Below are positions 32,581-46,407 of a stretch of DNA of 64,000 nucleotides, one piece after another (the first letter of the stretch is position 1; every line of letters starts with the position of its first letter). A model generated the notes under the pieces. The model had not been told where the DNA came from and did not search any database. It saw only the letters and a list, made by a program, of their open reading frames with translations. A program made the translations under genes and the position numbers. Source of the DNA: Pristiophorus japonicus (taxonomy: Eukaryota); contig NC_091999.1 of the NCBI RefSeq assembly GCF_044704955.1, positions 49,166,001 through 49,230,000 of the forward strand, in the 5' to 3' direction.

Positions 32581-33107
32581 TGTTAGGGTTAACTTCAACC
32601 CACCACAAGGATTCTGTTAGCCTTAAAGTAAATGCAAATTTTATTAATACAAGCCGGCAGGGAAGCTATTCTTGAAGGAACGCTCGAACTAGAGCCAGAG
32701 ACATCTTACTTTATACAGTTTCAGATGATAGCATTCAGTAATTACGAAAGTTACATTTAATACATGCTGATTGATTAATACATGATTGATTGGTACAGCG
32801 CCTCCTCCAATCTGGCTTCTATATGCCTTAATTGGCAATTCCAAATACATGTTGTGATGATTCTTTTTATTTAACTCTTATTTTGTTATACAATTGAAAT
32901 TCTATGTTATTTGTGTCCGTGCCCAGCTCCCAAGGCCTTTGGTCTATGAATTGGAACATCTGCTCCTCTGTGGAAGGCATCCCACACATGCTTCCCACAG
33001 TCTGAAAAACAGGCTGTGGTTTCCAATTTAAAAACCTGTTAATTCCATTTTAAAATATCGCAATTATTATTATTAATTGAAATTACAATTTGTAATCTGC
33101 CCTTTTA
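32581..33107 (-). mobile_element. Retroviral 3' LTR
   Basis: On the minus strand: PPT aacaggaggga (33119-33109), CCAAT (~32790), TATAAA (32715-32710), AATAAA (32645-32640) and terminal CA (32582-32581). Confidence 0.65.
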
Positions 33108-34533
33108 GTCCCTCCTGTTGATCCCTGATTATTTCTAAATAATCTGCTGACCATATATATGTTCTGAGCCATCTGCTCGAAATGATGATATCAAGTCCAT
33201 ATCTCTGGGATCAATTGTCGTTCCATCTTTTGCGGAGTCTTTACATACTGCCCCAGACCATTTCCCTGGGATATTGGCACGCCACTCATCTTTCTTTTTG
33301 TACAGACAGTGCATAAGCTCTGGGGTCTAGGTTGTTTCCCTAACGCGTTCCAAAGTCACTCGCCTCCCTATCATGCCTACATTACAGAATTAACAAAGCT
33401 GTTTGCTTTTCATATAGTTGGATCACGATACATATCCCTTCCACGACCATTACTACCTCAATTAAATGCCACATCGATTTGAGGACTGCGTAGGCTTCAG
33501 GTGACCAGACCTTAAAAATATCCCACCATGAACAACAATCTCCCTTTCCTTGCCTTATCCTGTCCTGATTCCTATGTCTCCCGCCTCGGTTTCGTTTATC
33601 AGGCGATAGGATTGGGACACTCACGACTCAGATCATGTGTTCATGCCGTCTTTTTGTTTGATTAACCCTCTTTGGTTTAAGCAAAGGCTTTCTGCATTCT
33701 TGGTTACGGGCCTTGGCCAAACTCTTCTTCCTGTATCTCTTGTATCTGCCTGCACAATCTCCCAGGAGCATCAACACCACTATCAGCAGCACTAGGACTA
33801 ACACATGGGATATAATTCTAATCCCTATCTTGTAACTTTGCTCGGCTAAGCCTTGCCTATCTTTGCACTTGTTAGATAACATCACCAACCAACTCAAGGC
33901 TATTACTATCTTTACTGACACTAGGGTAAGGGAAAGGATCCTTATCCAGGGATGTATAATCTCATGTACCAAGGCGGGTTTTTCAAGTTTTCCTTTATTT
34001 CACTGTCCAGATCTTTTGCTTTATCCTTCAGCTCTTGATATCTTTTAATGTTATTTCTTGAGCTCAGTTAAATCTTCAAATAACAGGGGATTTGCTCTTC
34101 CATGTAAACATCAATATCTTGCTCAATCTCATCGCTTATATTTCATGTCATTTTCTTCCTGGCATGTCATGTTTGCTCTTCTCACTGCCACCGACATTCC
34201 TGGAGTAACATAAGATCCCAGGCTAGTTATCACACAATATTCTCCTCGCACTTCAGAGGTGTAATGTGTGGGTTTGGTTCGGGCATGGTTTATTCCAATG
34301 ACACATCCTTTCGTAGTATTGTCAAACCCGCAGCTATCCTTGCTACCGTCTCCCACTGGGTGAGGGCCTATAGTTAGGCTTCCTTCTCTCCAGCACACGG
34401 ATAAAGATATTCCCCTTATATTTCCATTCTTTTTGATCTCGTACTGGTCCATCGCGGATGTACTCTTCCCCTTGTATTATGTTTGTTTCCCCTCACATCC
34501 TCCTGTAACAGCATACACTCTTGTCATTCCTTT
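33108..34533 (-). pseudogene. Degenerate env 3' half with class I fusion (pneumo/paramyxo F-like) features; lokiretrovirus-like
   Basis: Cys-rich ectodomain (LSVCWREG..DSCGFDNTTKGCVI..YCVITSLGSY), heptad NIKRYQELKDKAKDLDSEIKENL, hydrophobic segments in ORF 33628..33972 and WWDIFKVWSP in ORF 33382..33624. Confidence 0.6.
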
Positions 34534-34534
34534 C

Positions 34535-35010
34535 AAAAAGGGCCACATTACAGCAAAAGTCTCAAGGGACAAAGTTGTTAAAAAGACAAGCCTGAAGTCT
34601 CTGTGCCTCAATGCGAGGAGTATTCGTAATAAGGTGGACGAATTAACTGCACAGGCAGCAATTAATGAATATGATATAATTTGCACCACGTTGACATGGC
34701 TGTCCTAAGGCTCTGTCCCCTGGTTCTGGACTTCCCCAACATCGGGACAAGCTACCTGCATCTAACCTGTCCCGTCCCGTCAGAATCTTTATGTTTCTAT
34801 GAAATCCCCTCTCATCCTTCTAAGCTCCAATGTATAAAAATCCAGTTGATCCAGTCTCTCCTCACATGACAGTCCAGCCATCCCGGGAATCAGTCTGGTG
34901 AACCTTCGCTGCACTCTCTCAATAGCAAGAACGTCGTTCCTCACATTAGGAGATCAAAACAGAACACAATATTCCAAGTGAGGCCTCACCAAGGCCCTGT
35001 ACAACTACAG
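34535..35010. mobile_element. CR1 fragments: endonuclease start (+, to ~34700) fused to a 3' piece (-)
   Basis: SLCLNARSIRNKVDEL followed by reverse-complement LVRPHLEYCV sequence. Confidence 0.8.
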
Positions 35011-35778
35011 GAAGAATCTGTTGAATCTGCATTTTACTGTAACTCTGTGACATTCTGAACCGATAAAGAAATGGAATCGTGAAATGTATCTGTGTCTTTC
35101 AGTCTCTGCCTCACTCTCTATCTCTGTCTCTTTAGAGATCTGTGCATGTGTTTGCGTGTTTGAGTCTTTGTCTCCCTCACTCTGCCTCTCTCTGACTCAC
35201 TCTGTCTCTCCCTGTTTTTCTGTTTGTCTCGGTCTCTCAATCTGCCTGTGTCTTTCTCACAGTGTCCAGTTCTGTTCCAATGGGATTCTCTCAGTCTCTC
35301 TGTCTGACTGTCTCTATCTTTCCCATCATCACTGTCTGTCTATGTCTCTGCCTGTCTGTCTCTCTTTGCCTGTCTCTGTTCGACCCTGTCTCTAACCTGT
35401 TGAGTATTTCCATCATTTTCTGTTTTTATCTCTCTCTCTCTCTCTATCTTATGTCTCATTATTTCTCTCTCTCTCTCTTTGTCGCTCTCTTTGTCCATAG
35501 CTTTGTCTTTGTCTCTGGCTTTCCATTACTATTTGACTCCCTCTCTTTATGGAGCACACACACAGTAATCTCTGTGTATGTGTCTGTTTGAGTCTTTGTC
35601 TCACTCAGTCTGCCTATCTCTCTTGGTCTCACACTTGCTCTCTATATCTCTAGCTCGCTGTCTGTCTCTCCCTGTTTCTGTTTTTGTGTCTGTATCTCAA
35701 TGTGTCTGTCTCTTTCTCATGGTGTCAAGTTCTTTTCACAGCTCAATTCCTGCTGACTCAAAATCCACACCCGTCAGT

Positions 35779-35823
35779 ACCTCGTTAATATAGTCGTGAG
35801 TATCCCCACCTGTCAGGCGGGAG
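35779..35823 (+). pseudogene. tRNA-Asp(GUC) pseudogene, 3' half deleted
   Basis: acctcgttaatatagtcgtgagtatccccacctgtcaggcgggag matches the 5' part of vertebrate tRNA-Asp. Confidence 0.8.
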
Positions 35824-36039
35824 GAAGCATTTTCGAAATGTAGAATTGTACTTATGTTATTCGGTATAGATTCATATTAAAAGTTCAAATGCAACATAGA
35901 AGAGTAAAAATACAGCAAGAGGATATTGGCTCTTCCAGATTTTTAGGAATCGGAGACTTTTTCAGGACTCTGATGTTCTGATGCAGAGAAATGAATGATT
36001 GAGTTTTGTCTGAGTAACATTTAAAAACGTGCCAACGCA

Positions 36040-36121
36040 GTAGTCGTGGCCGAGTGGTTAAGGAGATTGACTCGATATCCATTGGCGTTTACCCGCGCAG
36101 GTTCGAATCCTGCCAACTACG
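36040..36121 (+). tRNA. tRNA-Ser, anticodon CGA, with several stem mismatches (likely pseudogene)
   Basis: 82 nt gtagtcgtggccgagtggttaagg...ggttcgaatcctgccaactacg with intact A and B boxes and a T-run downstream. Confidence 0.75.
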
Positions 36122-36858
36122 AATCTCAAAATTTTTCATTCCATTTCAAACTTTAACCAGATCCCTGCAAAACGGTTGGGTGGAATAACGTCCCACACCT
36201 TTCAACACTGAAATTTTTTTCTCATTTTGATTAATCTGCAATATTCACGATACATACGGATAGAAAAACGCAAATATCAGCTAAATTAGCGACAGTGATT
36301 CAGCCTGTCTATCCCTCTATATGTCTAAGGCACTCTGTGTATGCCCATTGGTGCATCTATATTTTTGGTTATGTATGCGTCTCTGTCTCTGTGTCTGTCT
36401 ATCTGTGTATATGCCACTGTGTATGCGCAACTGTCTGTGGATATCATCACCATGAATTTGGTATGTCCTGGAAGTTTTAAAAAAGATTTGGGGAAAATAA
36501 TACGGTTGTGACATTTGATATCGGCTTTGCTACAGCGACAGCATTTTCGACTTCAAGTCCCACTCCTGAGACTTGAGCTTGTAATCTTGGTTGACACTCA
36601 AGTGCAGTACTTGCGGAATTTTGCATTGTTGAAGCTGTTGACTTTCGGATGAAATGTTAAATTGAAGCTCCGTCTGCTCTCTCGGGTGAATTTGAAAGTT
36701 CCCACAGCATTATTCGAAAAAGAGTAATGAGTTGTCCCCGTGTCACTTTTATATGAATATTCTGAAATGCTCACTGAAAACCTGTGTGTATGCGTGTGTC
36801 TGTGAGGGTGGAGCTCAAGCCCAGATTCTCACAGAGACAGAATGTGATGGTTCACAAG

Positions 36859-36941
36859 TGCAGAATGGCCGAGTGTATAAGTCGTTGCATTTAAGATCAA
36901 ATGGTTTTATACCCACGTAGATTCGAACCCCACTTCTAGTA
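36859..36941 (+). pseudogene. tRNA-Leu(UAA) pseudogene
   Basis: 83 nt; aatggccgagtg..ttaagatcaaatgg..ttcgaaccccacttctagta. Confidence 0.75.
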
Positions 36942-37127
36942 ACTGTTGAATTTAACACCGATTTTCTCCCATCCTGCTCAGTGATACCCGAATGCCTTCT
37001 GTTGAAACTGTAACTCTGTCACACTCTCAACTGACCAAGAAATGTAATTGTGAAGTGCCTCTCACTCTCTGTCTTTAGAGCGCTCTATATATCTTTACGT
37101 GTTTGAGTCTCTGACTCACTGTGTCTG

Positions 37128-40100
37128 AGGATCAACAAGCTGAATTCAGGGAGCTTGGAGTTAAATTAAAAAGTAGGACTTCATAGGTCACAAACTCAGC
37201 ATTGCTGCCAGTGCCACCTGCTAGTCGGAGCAGGAATCACAGGAGAGCTCAGTTGAATGTGTGGTGCAGATGGGAGGGATTCAAGTTCCTGGGACTTTGG
37301 AGCCGGTTCTGTGGGAGGTGGGACCAGAACGAAACCGGACGGTCTGCACCTGGGCAGGACCAGAACCAAATTTCAAGGGGGAGTGTTTGCTCGAGTTTCT
37401 GGGGAGGGTTTACAGTAATATGGCAGGGCGACGGGAGACAGAGGGAAGTAGAATGGGCGCAGAAGTGAAAGAATAAAAGTAAAGTTGGAGGGCAAATATC
37501 AAATAGGGCCACTTTACAGCAAAATTCTAAAGGGTCCAAGTGTGTTAAAATAACAAGCCTGGAGGCTCTGTGCCTCATTGCGAGGAGTATTCGTAATTAG
37601 GTGGACGAATTAACTGCACAAGCAGCAATTACTGAATATGAAATAATTGGCATCACGGAGACATGACTCCAGGGTGACCAAGGCTGGGAATTCAACATTC
37701 AGGAAGCATAGACAGAAATGAAAAGGTGATCGGGTAGTGTTGCTGGTTAAAGAGGAAATTAAGGCAATAGTAAGGAACGACATTAGCTTGGATGATGTGG
37801 AATATGAATAGGTGGAGCTGCGGAATACCAAAGGGAAGAAAACGCAAGAGGAGTTGTGTACAGATCCGCAGAGAGTAGTAGTGAGGTTGGGGACAGCATC
37901 AAACAAGAAATTAGGGATGCGTGCCATAAAGATACAGCAGTTATCAAGGGCGACTTTACTTTACATGTAAATTGGGCTAACCAAAAAGGTAGCAATACGG
38001 TGCAGGAGGACTTCCTCGAGCGTATTAGGGATGGTTTTCTCACTCAATATAGCGAGGGACCATCTAGAGGGCTGGCCATCCTAGACTGGGTGATGTGTAA
38101 TGAGAAAGGACTAATTAGCAATCTTGTTGTGCGAGGCCCCTTGGGGAAGAGTGACCATAATAAGGTAGAATTCTTTATTAAGGTGGCGAGTGACACAGTT
38201 AATTCAGAGACTAGGGTCTTGAACTTAAGGAAAGGTAACTTCGATGGTATGTGACGTGAATTTGCTAGAATAGACTGGTGAATGATATTTAAAGGGTTTG
38301 AATTTGGATTGGCAATGGCAAACATTTAAAGATCACATGGATGAACTTCAACAATTATATTTCCCTGTCTGGAGTAAAAATAAAACGGTGAATGTGGCTC
38401 AACCGTGGCTAACAAAGGAAATTAAGGATAGTGTTAAATCCAGGGAATAGGCATATAAATTGTCCAGAAAAAGCCGCAACCTGAGGACTGGAAGAAATTT
38501 ACAATTCAGCTGAGGAGGACAAAGGGTTTAATTAGCAGGGGGGAAATAGATTATGAGAGGAAGCTTGCTGGGGACCTAATAAAGTTCTATAGATATGTGA
38601 AGACAAAAAGATTAGAGAAGACAAACGTAGGTCCCTTGCAATCAGATTCAGGTGAATTTATAATGGGGAAGAAGGAAATTGTAGAGCAGTTGAACAATAA
38701 CTTTGGTTGTGTCTTCACGAAGGAAGGAACGCATAACCTTCCAGAAATACTAGGGCACCGAGGATCTAGCGAGAAGGAGGAACTGAAGGAAATCCTTATT
38801 AGTCAGGTAATTGTGTTCGGGAAATTGATGGGATTGAAGGCCGATTAATCCCCGGGGCCTGATAGTCTGCATTGGAAAGTACTTAAGGAAGTGGCCCTAG
38901 AAATAGCGGATGCATTGGTGATCATTTTCGAACAGTCTATCGAATCTAGATCAGTTCGTATGAACTGAAGGGTAAATAATGTAAAACCACATTTTTGAAA
39001 AAGGAGGGAGATTGAAAACGGATAATTATAGACCGGTTAGCCTGACATCAGTAGTGGGGAAAATGTAGGAATCAATTATTAAAGATGAATTTGCAGCGCA
39101 TTTGGAAAGCAGTGACAGGATTGGTCAAAGCTGCATGAATTTATGAAAGGAAAATCAAGCTCGACAAATCTTCTGAAATTATTTGAGGATGTAGCTAGTA
39201 TAGTGTACAAGGGGAACCAGTGGATGTGGTGTATTTGGACTTTCAAAAGGCTTTCAACAAGGTCGCACAGACGTATTGGTGTGCAAAGTTAAAGCACATG
39301 GTATTGGGTATAATGTACTGACGTGGATAGAGAACTGGTTGGCAGACAGGAAGCAGAGAGTCGGAATAAACGGGTCCTTTTCAGAAAAGCAGGCAGTGAC
39401 TAGTGGGGTGCCACAGGGCTCAGTGCTGGTATCCCAGCAATTTACAATATACATTAATGATTTAGATTAAGGAATTGAGTGTAATATCTTCAAGTTTGCA
39501 GATGATGCCAACAGGGTGGCGATGTGAGCTGTGAGGAGGACGCTAAGAGGCTGCAGACTGACTTGGACCGGTTAGGTGAGTTGGCAAATGCATGGAAGAT
39601 GCAGAATAATGTGGATAAATGTGAGGTTATCCACTTTAGTGGCAAAAACACGAAGGCAGAATATTGTCTGTATGGCAACAGATTAGGAAAAGGGGAGGTG
39701 CAACGAGACCTTGGCGTCATGGTACATCAGTCATTGAAAGCTGACATGCAGTTACAGCAGGCAGTGAAGAAGGCAAAAGGAATGTTGACCTTCATAGCTA
39801 GGGGATTTGAGTATCGGAGCAGGGAGGCCATACTGCAGTTGTACAGGGCCTTTGTGAGACCTCACCTGGAATATTGTGTTCAGTTTTGGTCTCGTAATCT
39901 GAGGAAGGACTTTCATGCTATTGAGGGAGTGCAGCGAAGGTTCACCAGACTGATTCCCGGGATGACAGGACTGACATATGAGGAGAGACTGGATCTACAG
40001 TGGCTTGTAGTCACTGGAGTTTAGAAGCATGAGAGGGGATCTCATAGAATCATGAACAATTCTGACGGGACTTAACAGGTTAGATGCAGCAAGAAAATTC

Positions 40101-40420
40101 CCGATGTTGGGGAAGTCCAGAATTAGGGGACACAGTCTAATGATAAGGGGCAGGTCATTTAGGACCGAGATGAGGAGAAACTTCTTCACCCAGAGAGTTG
40201 TTAACCTCTAGAATTACCTACCGCAGAGAGTTGTTGATGCCAGTTCATTGGATATGTTGAAGAGGGAGTTAGATATTGCCGATATGGCCAAAGGCATCAA
40301 GAGGTATGGAGAGAAAGCAGGAAAGTGTTACTGAGGTGAATGATCAGCCATGATCTTATTGAATGGTGGTGCAGACTCGAAAGCCCGAATGGCCTACTCC
40401 TGCACCTATTTTCTATGTTT
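37128..40420 (+). mobile_element. Long CR1 (ORF1 esterase remnant, ORF2 endonuclease/RT, 3' UTR) inserted in the tRNA-unit spacer
   Basis: ORF 37202..37468 LLPVPPASRSRN..LNVWCRWEGFKFL (SGNH esterase-type CR1 ORF1); GDF and LGKSDH endonuclease motifs; SGVPQGSVL; tttctatgtttct tail. Confidence 0.92.
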
Positions 40421-41108
40421 CTCTGTTTGTCTCTGTCTCTCATTCTTTTTCTTTCTTTCGGTGTCAAAGTTCTGCTCCAATGGGATTCTCTCAGTCTCTT
40501 TGTCTATTTGGCTCTCTCTTTCCCATCATCCCTCTCTGTCTGACTGTCTCTCTCTTTCCCATCGTCTCTTTCTATTTGTCTATGTCTGTGCCTGTCTGCC
40601 TTTCTTTTCCTGTCTCTGTTCGTACCTGTCTCTAACCTGCTGAGTATTTCCATAATTTTCTCTTTTTATCTCTATCTCTCTTTCTATCTGTCTCTCTCTC
40701 TATCTGGCTATCTCTGTGTCTCTCTTTGTCCCTGTCTTCATCTCTGTATTGCTATCACTCTTTCCCTCTCTCTCTTTATAGAGCATGCACATATCTCTGT
40801 GTATGTGTGTGCTTGAGTTATTTTCTCACTGTGTCTGTCTCTCCCTCTCAGTCTCACACTTTATCTGTCTCTTTGTCTCTATCTCGCTGTCTGTCTCTCC
40901 CTGTTTCTCTGTTTGTCTCTGTCTCTCAGTGTTTCTGTCGACTTCTCATGGTGTCCAGTTCTGTTCACAGCTCGATTCCTGCTCTGAGAGAGCACATACC
41001 CGTCAGTTCCTCTGTTTGACTGTCTCTCATTGTGTCTGTCTCTTTTTCATGGTGCCCAGTTCTTTTCACAGCTCGATTCCTGCTGTCTAAAAAGCTGCAC
41101 CTGTCAGT

Positions 41109-41180
41109 ACCTCTTTAGTACAATGGTGAATATCACCGCCTGACACGCGGGAGACCAGAGTTGAATTTCCCGATGGGGAG
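41109..41180 (+). pseudogene. tRNA-Asp-derived pseudogene, anticodon mutated to GAC
   Basis: 72 nt acctctttagtacaatggtgaatatcaccgcctGACacgcgggagaccagagttgaatttcccgatggggag; B box damaged. Confidence 0.8.
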
Positions 41181-41397
41181 AAGGCTTTTTCAAAATGTAG
41201 AATTTTACTTTTGTTTCTTGGTATAGATTCATGTTAAAAAGTTCGAGAGCAATATAGAAGAGTAAAAATACTGAAAAAGAAGATTGCCTTCCAGATTTTT
41301 TAGCAAACGGAAACTTATTCAGGATTCTGTGGCCGGCTGCTGCACAGAGATAGATGACTGAGTTTTATCTGAGTAAAATTTAAAATGCAGCAAACCA

Positions 41398-41480
41398 GCA
41401 GTCGTAGCCGACTGGTTAAGGTGATGAGCTCGATAATCTATTGGGGTTTCCCCGCACAGGTTCGAAACCTACTGATTGCA
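41398..41480 (+). pseudogene. tRNA-Ser(CGA) pseudogene
   Basis: Homologous to 36040-36121 with more substitutions. Confidence 0.75.
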
Positions 41481-42244
41481 ATTCTTGGCATTTTTCATTC
41501 CATTTCACAATTTAACCAGGTCTTGCAAAACACATACCGAAATAGGTGGAATAATATCCCACAGCTGTAAAGACTGACATTTATTTTTCATTTCTATTAA
41601 TCTGCAATATTGACGATACATAAGGATAGAAAAACGCAAAAATCAGCCAAAGTAGCGAGAGTGATACAGCCTGCTTCTCCCTCTATATGTCTGAGGCATC
41701 GGTGCATGTCCGTTGGTGCGTATATATTTTTGGTTATGTGTTTGTCTGTGTCTCTGTGTCTGTCTATCTCTATATATGTCTCTGTGTATGTGCAACTGTC
41801 TGTGGAAATCATCACCATGAATTTGGTATGTCCTGGAACTTATTAAAAAGACTTAGGGAAAAATAATACGATTGTGAACTTTGGTATCGGCTTTGGTTCA
41901 TGGGCAGCATTCTCGACTGAATCAGGAGTTTGTGTGTTCAAGTCGCATTCCTGAGACTGGAGCATATACATTTTGGCTAACACCCAACTGCAGCACTTGG
42001 GGAATTTTGCATTTTGAAGCTGTTGACTTTCGGATGAAATGTTAAATTGAAGCTCCGTCTGCACCCTCGGCTTGATGGAAAAGTTCCCAGAGCATTACAC
42101 GAAAAAGAAAAGGAGAGTTGCCACCTTGTCATTATTACTAAAAATGTTCGGAAATGCTCCCTGAAACCCACGTGTGTGTGTTTGTCTATGGGGGTGGAGT
42201 TGAAGCCCAGATTCTCGGAGAGACAGAGTCGAACTGATGACAGG

Positions 42245-42326
42245 ACCCGGATGGCCGAGTGGTTAAAGCGTTGGCCTTAAAATTCCGTGGCTTTTTCCCG
42301 CGTGGGTTCGTATACCATTCCTTAAT
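42245..42326 (+). pseudogene. tRNA-Leu(UAA) pseudogene
   Basis: acccggatggccgagtggttaaagcgttggccttaaa...cgcgtgggttcg. Confidence 0.75.
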
Positions 42327-43552
42327 AAAACAGAGATTTTTCCCATCCTGCTCAGTGACACCCGATTTTCATGTGTTGCAGTTGCATTTTTCTGTAACTC
42401 TGTGAAACTCTGAGCAGATGATGAAATGAATTGTGAAATGTATCTGTTTCGCTGTATTTGTATCTGTCTATGCCTCTCTCTCTCTCTTTAGAGAGATGTG
42501 TATGTATTTCTGTGTTTGAGTCTTTGTCTCTCTCAGTCCGCCTCTCTCTGATTCACTCTGTCTATCCCTATTTTTCTGTTTGTCTCTGTCTCTCAATCTG
42601 TATTCTTCTCACGGTGTCCAGTTCTGTTCGAAAGGGATTCTCTCAGACTCTCTGTCTGACTGTCTCTCTCTTTCCCATCATCTCTGTCTGCCCATGTCTT
42701 TGCCTGTCTCTGTTCGTCCTTGTCTCTAACCTGATGAGTATTTCCATAATTTTCTGTTTTTGTCTACTTGTTTCTCTCTCTATCTGTCTTTCTCTCTGTT
42801 TGTCTCCCTCTTTTTCTCTCTCTTTGTCCCTGGCTTTTTCTTGTCATTCCATCACTATTTCCCTCCCTCTCTTTATGTAGCACGCAAACACATTTCTGTG
42901 TATGTATGTATTTGAGTCTTTGTCTCATTCAGTCTGACCCTCCCTCTCAGTCTCAAACTTTCTGTCTCTCTTTGTCTCTATCTCGCTGTCTGTCACTCCC
43001 TGTTTCCATGTTTGTCTCTGTTTCTCAATGTGTCTGTTTCTTTCTCACGGTGTCCAGTTCTGTTCCAATGGGATTCTCTTAGTCTCTCTGTCTGACTGAC
43101 TCACTCTTTCCCATCATCTCTGTCTGTCTATGTCTCTGCCTGTCTGTCTCTCTTTGCCTGTCGCTGGTAGTTCCTGTCTCTAACCTGCTGAGTATTTCCA
43201 TAATTTTCTGTTTATATCTTTGTCTCTCTCTCTCTCTACCTGCCGCTCTCTCTCTATCTGTCTCTCTCCTTGTTACTGTCTTTATCACTGTCTTTCTCTC
43301 AATCTTTCCCTCTCTCTCTTTATGGATCACACACACACACACACACACATCTCTGTATATGTCTGCGTTTGAGTCTTTTTCTCAAGCTGTCTGCCTCTCA
43401 TTCTCAGTCTCACACTTTCCGTCTCTTGTTGTCTCTATCTCGTTGCCTGTCTCTCCTTGTTTGTCGGTTTGTCTCTGTCCCTCAATGTGCCTGTCTACTT
43501 CTCATGGTGTCCATTTCTGTTCACAGCTCGATTCCTGCTCTGATAGAATTCA

Positions 43553-43624
43553 TATTTGTTAATTTCGTGGTCAGTATCCCTGCTTGTCAAGCGTGAGATG
43601 TGGGGTTCAATGCCCCGATAGGAT
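43553..43624 (+). pseudogene. tRNA-Asp(GUC) pseudogene, highly diverged
   Basis: gtggtcagtatccctgcttgtcaagcgtgaga..ggggttcaatgccccga. Confidence 0.65.
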
Positions 43625-43830
43625 GAAACTTTTTCAAAATGTTGAATCTTACTTCTGTTTCCTGGTATAGATTAATGTTAAAAAGTTGAAGAGCAATTTC
43701 GAACACGAAAAATACAGCAAGAGGGGATTGCCTCTTCCAGATCTTTCACAAACGGAGACTGTTTCAGGATTCTGTGGCCGTCAGTTGCACAGAGTTTTAT
43801 CTGAGTAACATTTAACAAGCCAGTTAGCCA

Positions 43831-43913
43831 GTAGCCGTGGCCGAGATTTTAAGGCAATAGACGAGATAATCCATTGGGTTTTCATCACGAAGGATCGAAC
43901 CTTGCCGACTATG
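43831..43913 (+). pseudogene. tRNA-Ser pseudogene (AGA at the anticodon position)
   Basis: gtagccgtggccgag...cttgccgactatg. Confidence 0.7.
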
Positions 43914-44668
43914 GTTCTAAGCATTTTTCATTCCATTTCACAATTTAACCAGGTCTTTGCAAAACTGATCCTGTGATAGATGGAATAATGTGCCACACCT
44001 TTCAACACTGACACATTTTTACTCATTGTTATTAATCTGCAATATTCACGATACATACGGATAGAAAAACGCAAAAGTCAGCCAAATTTGCGACATTGCT
44101 TCAGCCTGTCTTTCCCTCGAAATGTCGAAGGCACTCTGTGCATGTCCGTTGGTGCGTGTATATTTTTGGTTGTGTGTGTGTGTCTCTCTCTGTCTGTCTA
44201 TCTATATGTATGTCTCTGCGTATGTGCAACTGTCTGTGGAAATCATCACCATGAATTTGGTATGTGCTTGAACATTTTTAAAAAACTTGCGGAAAATAAT
44301 AGGGTTGTGAACTTTGGTATCGGCTTTGGTTCAGTGGCAGCATTCTCGACTGAATCTGGAGTTTGTGTGTTCAAGTCGCACTCCTGAGACTTGAGCATAT
44401 AATCTTTGCTGATTTTCAATTGCAGTACTTGGGGAATTTTGCATTCTCGAAGCTGTTGACTTTCGGATGAAATGTTAAATTGAAGCTCCGTCTGCAACCT
44501 CGGGTGGATGTGAACGTTCCCAGAGCATTACTCGAAAAAGAATAGGAGAGCTGCCCCCGTGTCACTATTACTAAAAATGTTCGTAAATGCGCACTGAATC
44601 CCTTTGTGTCCGTGAGGGTGGGGTTCCACCCCAGATTCTCACAGAGACAGAATCCGAATGCTGACAGG

Positions 44669-44751
44669 ACCAGGATTGCCGAGTGGTTAAGGCATTGGAT
44701 TTAAAATGTAATTGATTTAAACCCGCGTGGGTTCGAACTCAACTCCTTAGT
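44669..44751 (+). pseudogene. tRNA-Leu(UAA) pseudogene
   Basis: accaggattgccgagtggttaaggcattggatttaaa...ccgcgtgggttcgaactc. Confidence 0.75.
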
Positions 44752-45347
44752 TTAACACAGATTTCCTCCCATCCTGTTCAGTGGTACCCGATTTTCACCT
44801 GTTGAATCAGCATTTTTCTATGACACTCTGAGCCGATTGTGAAATGTATCTGCGTCGCTCAGTCTCTGCCTCTTTCTCTCTTCAGAGAATTGTTTGTGTG
44901 TTTGAGTCTCTGACTCACTCTGTTTGTCTCTGTCTCTTTCTCACTCTGTCCAGTTCTGTTCCAATGGGATTCTCTCAGTCTCTCTGTCTGACTGGCTCTC
45001 TCTTTGCCATGATCTGCCTGTCCATGTAGCTGTTATTCCCTGTCTCCAACCTGATGAGTATTTTCATCATTTTCTGTTTTTGTCTCTATGCCTCTCTCTC
45101 TATCTGTCTTTCTCTCTATCTGTCTCCGTCTTTGTCTCTATCTTTGTCCCTGTGTTTTTCTCTGTCATTCCATCACCATTTGCCTCCCTCTCTTTCTGGA
45201 GCACGCAAACACATCTCTGTGTATGTCTCATTCAGTCTGAACCCCCCTCTCAGTCTCACACTTTATGTCTCTCGTTGTCTCTATCTCGCTCTCTGTCTCT
45301 CCCTGTTTGTCGGTTTGTCTCTGTCTCTCAATGTGTCTGTCGACTTC

Positions 45348-45882
45348 CCCTAATCTGAGGAAGGACGTCCTTGCTATTGAGGGAGTACAGTGAAGGTTCA
45401 CCAGCTTGATTCCCGGGATGGCAGGACTGAGATATGAGGAGAGACTGGATCAACTTGGCTGGTATCCACTGGAGTTTAGAAGAATGAGAGGCGCTCCCAT
45501 AGAAATATATAAAATTCTGAAGAGATTGGACAGGTTAGAGGCGGGTAGAATGTTCCCATTGCTGGTGAGTTCGAGAACCATGGGTCACAGTCTAAGAATA
45601 AGTTGTAAGGCATTTAGGACCGAGATGAGGAGAAACTTCTTCACTCAGAGAGAGGTTAACCTGTGGCATTCTCTACCACAGAAAGTTCTTGAGGCCAGTT
45701 CGTTAGTTATATTCAAAAGGGAGTTAGATATGGCCCTTACGGCTAAAGGGATCAAGGGGTATGGAGAGAAAGCAGGAAAGGGGTACTGAGGTTGAATGTT
45801 CAGCCATGATCTTATTGAATGATGCTGCAGGCTCGAAGCACCGAATGGCCTACTCCTGCAAATATTCTTTTTGTTTCTATGT
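45348..45882 (+). mobile_element. CR1 3' fragment replacing the Asp-Ser part of tRNA unit 4
   Basis: ORF 45406..45789 is a CR1 C-terminus; its flanks match non-adjacent parts of the unit. Confidence 0.85.
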
Positions 45883-46407
45883 TGATGCGTGTATATTTTT
45901 GGTTATTGTGTGTGTGTCTGTGTATGTCTACCTGTATGTATGTCTCTGTGTATGTGCAGTTGTCTATGGAAATCATCACCATGAATTTGGTGCGTCCTGG
46001 AAATTTTAAAAAGCTTGGGGAAAATAATACGGTTGTGATCTTTGGTATCGGCTTTCTTTCAGTGGCTCCATTCTCGACTGAATCAGGAGGTTGTGTTTTT
46101 AAGTCGCACTCTGTGACTTGGTAACGTCATCTTGGCTGACACTCAAATGCAGTACCTGGGGAATTTGGGATTGTTGAAGCAGTTGACTTTCGGATGAAAT
46201 GTTAAATTGAAGCTTCATCTCCACCCTCGGGTGGATGTGAAAGGTCCCAGAGCCTTACTCGAAAAAGAATAGGAGAGTTGCGCCCGTGTCAATATTAGGA
46301 AAAATGTTCGAAAATGCTCCCTGAAAACCTATGTGTCTGTGTGTGTCTGTGGGGGTGGAGTTCAAGCACAGATTAATACAGAGACAGAATCCAATCTCTG
46401 ACGGGAC

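Follow-up and report, generated by a model that had tools for sequence, protein, structure and literature searches.

The env remnant in the window (the whole stretch of 64,000 nucleotides of Pristiophorus japonicus DNA that was analysed) very probably belongs to an endogenous retrovirus whose envelope has a predicted fold resembling that of the fusion (F) proteins of pneumo- and paramyxoviruses, and whose reverse transcriptase (RT) lies among canonical retroviruses, outside the lokiretroviruses. What the window retains of such an element is a dead 3′ end (half an env gene, a polypurine tract and an LTR) that encodes nothing functional. We read its env as F-type because relatives in the same genome model or match as F proteins. 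The RT linked to F-type env in those relatives groups with canonical retroviruses, and F-type env is therefore not confined to lokiretroviruses.

All viral features of the window copy lie on the minus strand. Alignment to the family placed the cysteine-rich beta region (predicted F domains I/II) at 34132..34535, the 5′ part of the gene being gone, followed by a linker, an HRB-like C-terminal heptad helix and a first transmembrane segment at 33892..34131. ISLSVCWREGSLTIGPHP, DSCGFDNTTKGCVI and EYCVITSLGSYV fall in a single open stretch of 115 aa (34476-34132), NIKRYQELKDKAKDLDSEIKENL is read in a different frame, and two hydrophobic segments lie within 33999-33631. The remnant is broken by stops and small deletions near 34208, 34165, 34097 and 34059. 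A second transmembrane segment with a basic tail (33628..33824) resembles the end of the L068/L073/L086-type F env subfamily. Copy comparison defined the 3′ untranslated region (33120..33627), the part below ~33516 being present in the short-LTR subfamily only. The polypurine tract (33108..33119), which also precedes the 3′ LTR in L037, L050 and L051, adjoins a 3′ LTR of 527 bp (32581..33107) with a terminal CA, TATAAA at 32715 and AATAAA at 32645. The env peptides quoted in the earlier note were thus recovered at 34535-33628, in two frames with stops, and the tract and LTR that it placed just downstream were found at 33119-33108 and 33107-32581. Non-viral LINE fragments (34536..35010), presumably CR1-like by their motifs, truncate the provirus on its 5′ side, where relatives run on into env; only the env end, polypurine tract and LTR are retained. 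One tRNA-Ser(CGA) gene (36040-36121) lies 1.5 kb upstream, inside repeated microsatellite-rich units (35000-46300).

A DNA search of the 5.9-Gb genome (40 of 961 candidates scored) returned at least 41 matches. All 30 window-like loci that were fetched carry ~1.5 kb of common flank on each side, 25 of them on the window's own contig, and they are therefore segmental duplicates of one broken insertion. The whole window neighbourhood is duplicated many times on this contig. Amplification of the copies together with tRNA arrays was considered but found no support: a tRNA was present in none of the 19 duplicate loci, though the loci end at the edge of the tRNA. A protein search (150 of 4529 candidates scored) gave dispersed copies at 65-81% identity among the matches listed. 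LTR pairs surround env in 9 of the 20 dispersed loci fetched, and in four dispersed proviruses (L037, L043, L050 and L051) each end shares 84-89% identity with the LTR stretch of the window. LTR divergence was 0.026-0.067 for the 7 pairs measured; this corresponds to ~6-15 My at a mammalian rate or to 58-153 My at the shark rate assumed in the available text of Han 2015 (PMC4422223), so that the insertion date is very uncertain.

The relatives have the layout of a canonical Retroviridae element: LTR, tRNA-Ser primer site, gag, pro-pol (protease, RT with YVDD, tether, second RNase H, integrase), env, polypurine tract and LTR. Deletions in gag and pol affect most elements of the window family. 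Compared with the 3′ end of the tRNA-Ser gene in the window, primer sites such as TGGCGTAGTCGGCAGGAT show one mismatch. The primer sites of L035, L037, L041, L050, L052 and L054 vary between copies, and we take the variants to resemble three tRNA-Ser isoacceptors. The same internal sequence is flanked by two unrelated LTR types of ~515 and ~700 bp. Among homologues with a species name, the nearest come from Mustelus, Chiloscyllium, Heterodontus, Scyliorhinus and Pristiophorus. Eight loci of a young sister family were fetched (L075-L081 and L090). LTR pairs 99.4-100% identical were present in 7 of these 8, and the gag, pol and env frames were unbroken in 6. In 4/4 loci checked, gag and pol occupy one frame split by a single TGA, and no additional forward ORF of ≥200 aa was found between the LTRs of the young family; some lokiretroviruses carry an extra gene, smc. 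The family is high-copy, with at least 103 matches of near-equal score, and its sequences suggest that it has likely been active recently. A second F-env provirus of this young type adjoins a window-family copy (L053:2773-4877).

A natural env frame of 560 aa from the relative L055 (P0002) matched the window at 34536-33892 with E 5e-46, and the env signal in the window is therefore not chance. Three further F-type env subfamilies are 28-52% identical to P0002. The order of elements in Env is an N-terminal module, a furin-type site (RQRR or RMKR), an apolar fusion-peptide-like segment, a long helix, the cysteine-rich beta region, a second helix, a membrane anchor and a basic tail; the elements from the furin-type site to the membrane anchor are present in all subfamilies. 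The N-terminal module precedes the F core in P0207, P0225 and L075 (6398-6890); UniRef names P0207 Ig-like, and P0225 gave a weak V-set match (E 0.045). Neither of the two long F-type frames that were searched for them (P0002 and the env of L075) holds a motif of the CX6CC, ISD or LQNR type, in agreement with the earlier note, which had seen no gamma-type ISD/CX6CC. The VITSLG word that the note pointed to in both the window and RSV F is not kept across the family, which conserves only C (45/58 rows), V (35/52) and T (36/52) columns, and the word-level likeness to RSV is therefore probably chance.

Sequence searches with the window fragment alone found no F-like match in Pfam or the PDB, and the 115-aa frame as query among longer proteins gave 0/41 candidate homologues. 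Pfam Fusion_gly produced no match at E≤1 on the natural env frames and placed no shark-family env above its cut-off, the best match from this genome reaching 26.4 bits against a cut-off of 29.8. At E≤0.1 it matched 3 of the 79 members of the modelling alignment, two loki rows being expected among them. Loki Env likewise stays under the Pfam PF00523 cut-off (16.8 and 24.3 bits). Profile searches of PDB sequences reached F0 at E 0.12 and 1.4 only. A profile built from 14 non-loki envs matched loki Env at 58 and 51 bits (E 5e-18), and its controls gave at most 3.3 bits for 200 shuffles and 6.6 bits for a gamma-type env. HHalign of shark env against loki Env (probability 91.5, E 8.8e-7) aligned cysteines and beta motifs over 300 columns. 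In the ESM Atlas the first match of P0002 was Fusion glycoprotein F0 (score 0.92, 204/256 features), a weak match in view of its low recognition value (1471). Searched with a profile, a set of 1.84 billion proteins yielded 61 matches at E≤0.001; 10 were looked up, and the 9 that were named came from four sharks, four frogs and one cyprinid. Full-length env homologues, several in multi-member clusters, occur in frogs (Pelodytes, Mantella, Bombina and Discoglossus) and the cyprinid (P0214, P0233, P0241, P0246 and P0252).

The env core of L075, a sister-family element, was modelled with AlphaFold2 on the 79-row alignment, which includes 2 loki rows (pLDDT 74.7, pTM 0.57); the L075 env is 42% identical to the window family over 520 aa. 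In Foldseek searches of the PDB with this model, post-fusion F of RSV (E 1.3e-11) and of hPIV3 (E 2.8e-11, TM 0.47/0.53) ranked at the top of 244 matches at E≤0.001, which cover ~500 columns including the beta region. Matches in a viral structure library included baculovirus F, lispi- and arlivirus glycoproteins, the Env of WEHV-1 and WDSV, and foamy Env. An earlier model from 19 rows had a pLDDT of 38 and no structural match at E≤0.001. We predict from the model that env has a class Ib (F-type) fusogen architecture with a furin site, fusion peptide, HRA, beta domains, HRB and TM. The relationship to pneumo- and paramyxovirus F proposed in the earlier note is thus supported by the ESM Atlas, HHalign, the 14-env profile and the L075 model.

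The RT phylogeny used as references P0025 (a stored pol with the published SnRV motif), P0053 (Rauscher MLV) and three natural loki elements, L092-L094, which were located by the published loki RT motif and whose Env gives PF00523 matches. These three lie on contigs filed as metagenomes, two of them with gag, pol and env, and are probably fish host DNA. The careful tree had 42 rows, drawing on 24 of the 120 listed RT homologues with one outgroup, and held no foamy virus, ERV-L, class II element, WDSV or any named epsilon virus. In this tree the loki rows formed a single clade (97/96) that fell outside the remaining retroviral rows (94/94), a topology that agrees with Wang and Han (PMC7947760, available text). 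L035, L062 and L063, which carry window-type env and are 76-89% identical to the window in DNA, fell in a shark clade (98/96) within the canonical group (94/94). A clade of shark and loki RTs was rejected (p-AU 0.0076, and 0.0022 with an earlier row set); the lokiretrovirus identity favoured in the earlier note is therefore not borne out, a linked RT inside a non-loki clade being one of the outcomes that the note itself named as refuting it. The class I group that holds MLV (100/99) excluded the shark RT rows. SnRV lay outside the 94/97 branch that unites shark and fish rows with class I, and was not the sister group. Quick trees attached loki near SnRV with weak support. The exact loki RT motif pattern had 0 matches in the genome, which need not mean that loki is absent from it, and scans of viral contigs gave no useful RT or loki locus. 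Furthermore, the L075 pol scored 405 bits to XMRV/MLV RT versus 205 to foamy, its RNase H was 45% identical to MLV, 41% to SnRV and 25% to loki in pairwise comparison, and its protease-to-YVDD distance was 311 aa, compared with 315 in MLV and 712 in loki.

Three other explanations were weighed against a canonical retrovirus with an F-folding envelope. That env is not F-like at all, but a divergent retroviral env whose matches come from generic coiled coils, would fit the lack of Pfam F matches for the shark sequences and the uninformative first model. We consider this highly improbable: the structural matches extend through the beta region over ~500 columns, cysteines and beta motifs align to loki Env, and the shuffled controls were near zero. 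Scarcely better is the prospect that the element is a true lokiretrovirus, the first in cartilaginous fish. Its Env is homologous to loki Env, and BLAST of the integrase core puts loki first (50% identity, 172 bits), followed by MLV with 117 and SnRV with 107. A tether plus RNase H (dual RNase H) was found on L064, L065 and L075; this arrangement is common to all retroviruses and so is not diagnostic of loki. The RT test refutes a loki identity unless a fuller reference set overturns it, the shark RT reads QYTWTRLPQGFH where the published loki rows mostly read RCPFGY, and Env is only 16-19% identical to that of loki. Loki was reported in 0/6 chondrichthyan genomes in the available text of Wang and Han (PMC7947760), which fits our data because Chiloscyllium has this env and, by their screen, no loki RT.

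A recombinant, in which the 3′ half (integrase and env) of a canonical retrovirus came from a donor resembling loki, is somewhat easier to entertain but still improbable. It would account for the integrase core identity, the one signal at odds with the RT placement, and for the env homology to loki, and env swapping is visible in the same pol clade. However, in an integrase tree that lacked CGIN1 the shark rows stood apart from loki (87/96), which paired instead with frog and coelacanth rows (97/90), and the env tree sets loki Env apart on a long branch of its own. An F-type fold is likewise seen in foamy Env and in models of walleye epsilon Env, and a loki donor is therefore unnecessary.

Within the canonical shark clade, env genes appear to have been exchanged among closely related pol genes. 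Gamma-type env was found at L064:5718-6709, L069:2961-3917 and L071:5896-6888 (TLV_coat E 9e-15), with ISD and CX6CC present in the L071 env; L069 and L071 each lie between paired LTRs. The RTs of these three elements nest among those of F-env elements (100/99). Window-family RTs are also intermixed with the RTs of L068 and L073 (99/92), which bear a different F env subfamily; over 33824-33516 the window shows 79-85% identity to these two elements. Because the second membrane segment and tail in the window match the env end of that other subfamily, 33824-33628 is likely the scar of one F-type env replaced by another.

By analogy with gamma, epsilon and SnRV readthrough (PMC13517186, available text), pol of these elements would be expressed through stop-codon readthrough. 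As in class I fusogens, Env would be cleaved at its furin-type site; the predicted fold suggests that the trimer could then drive membrane fusion by F-type refolding, and the N-terminal module may bind the cell. A LINE cut the window provirus, and segmental duplication later copied the remnant together with its flanks, for the most part on a single contig. We tentatively propose, with rather less than even confidence, that a large and still-spreading clade of canonical shark retroviruses, with env relatives in frogs and a cyprinid fish, enters cells via a paramyxovirus-type F fusogen, that the F-type envelope is ancestral in retroviruses, and that the gamma type is a later replacement caught here mid-change. 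The ancestral reading is suggested because the Env of foamy, loki and walleye epsilon viruses joins the shark F type.

The pairing of an F-type Env with a pol that is canonical and not foamy bears directly on the four scenarios of env origin left open in the available text of Wang and Han (PMC7947760). An F-like env is not a loki marker, and such elements would escape screens that look for gamma- or beta-type TM. F-type and gamma-type envs occur on near-identical pol in one genome, so the direction of env replacement is testable by phylogeny. As far as the available texts go, in published work F-like Env is tied to lokiretroviruses and to foamy viruses, and orthoretroviral Env is classed apart (PMC7947760, PMC11468914). 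An F-type shark Env is less surprising given that F-like foamy Env is already published and that walleye Env models match as well. In literature that did not extend to subscription journals or bioRxiv supplements, we found no prior report of an F-type Env on an SnRV-like or shark element. In their available parts, Chen et al. (bioRxiv 2021.11.23.469661) screened gamma- and beta-type Env only and recorded gamma Env in combination with class III pol, Henzy and Johnson (PMC3758190) called epsilon Env structurally distinct, and Viro3D (PMC12583693) expected more retroviral cases and made no mention of walleye or snakehead viruses in its main text.

Lokiretroviruses are described (PMC7947760, available text) as having gag-pol-env between LTRs and an F-type Env in which a furin site, a fusion peptide, a coiled coil and a TM are present. 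The shark element shares this Env anatomy and gene order, and the tether plus RNase H. It differs in the position of its RT outside the loki clade, the low RNase H and Env identities given above, a pol of 1181 aa versus 1745 aa, a longer N-terminal module in Env and zinc knuckles in gag. With SnRV the shark RT shares the motifs QYTWTRLPQGFH, LQYVDD and GLFNxCR and 42-43% identity (to P0025). SnRV (clade Huo; PMC6001957, PMC12193657 and PMC4977317, available text) is not the sister group of the shark rows in our tree, its gag-pol junction, for which stop readthrough has been reported (PMC13517186), is UAG where that of the shark element is TGA, and no accessory ORFs were seen in the shark element. 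An elephant shark lineage clusters with SnRV, and an F-like Env is not described for it in the available text (Han 2015, PMC4422223).

Foamy Env is a class Ib fusogen with the core of paramyxo- and pneumovirus F, and orthoretrovirus Env was filed as class Ia (Fernandez et al., PMC11468914, available text). The shark element resembles foamy viruses in having a retroviral Env with an F core, 8rm0 being among the matches of the L075 model (E 1.6e-6), but it pairs a canonical RT with a class Ib-like Env, and the foamy pol is the more distant one by bit score. The walleye epsilonretroviruses are alike in their gag-pol readthrough layout and in Env, as models of WEHV-1 and WDSV Env (BFVD Q9WHI8 and A4GTG3) match the L075 model at E 1.3e-10 and 2e-8; a likeness of walleye Env to the F type was not found stated in the parts of the literature available. 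Their Env is far longer (1159-1317 aa), and the shark RTs fall outside the class I group that holds MLV in our tree, which lacked WDSV. Finally, the F proteins of RSV, hPIV3, NDV, henipaviruses and baculoviruses and the F-type Env of errantiviruses (bioRxiv 10.1101/2023.10.26.564294, available text) share the predicted fold and order of elements with the shark Env, whereas identity to them is 10-15% and the shark version is carried on an integrating retrovirus.
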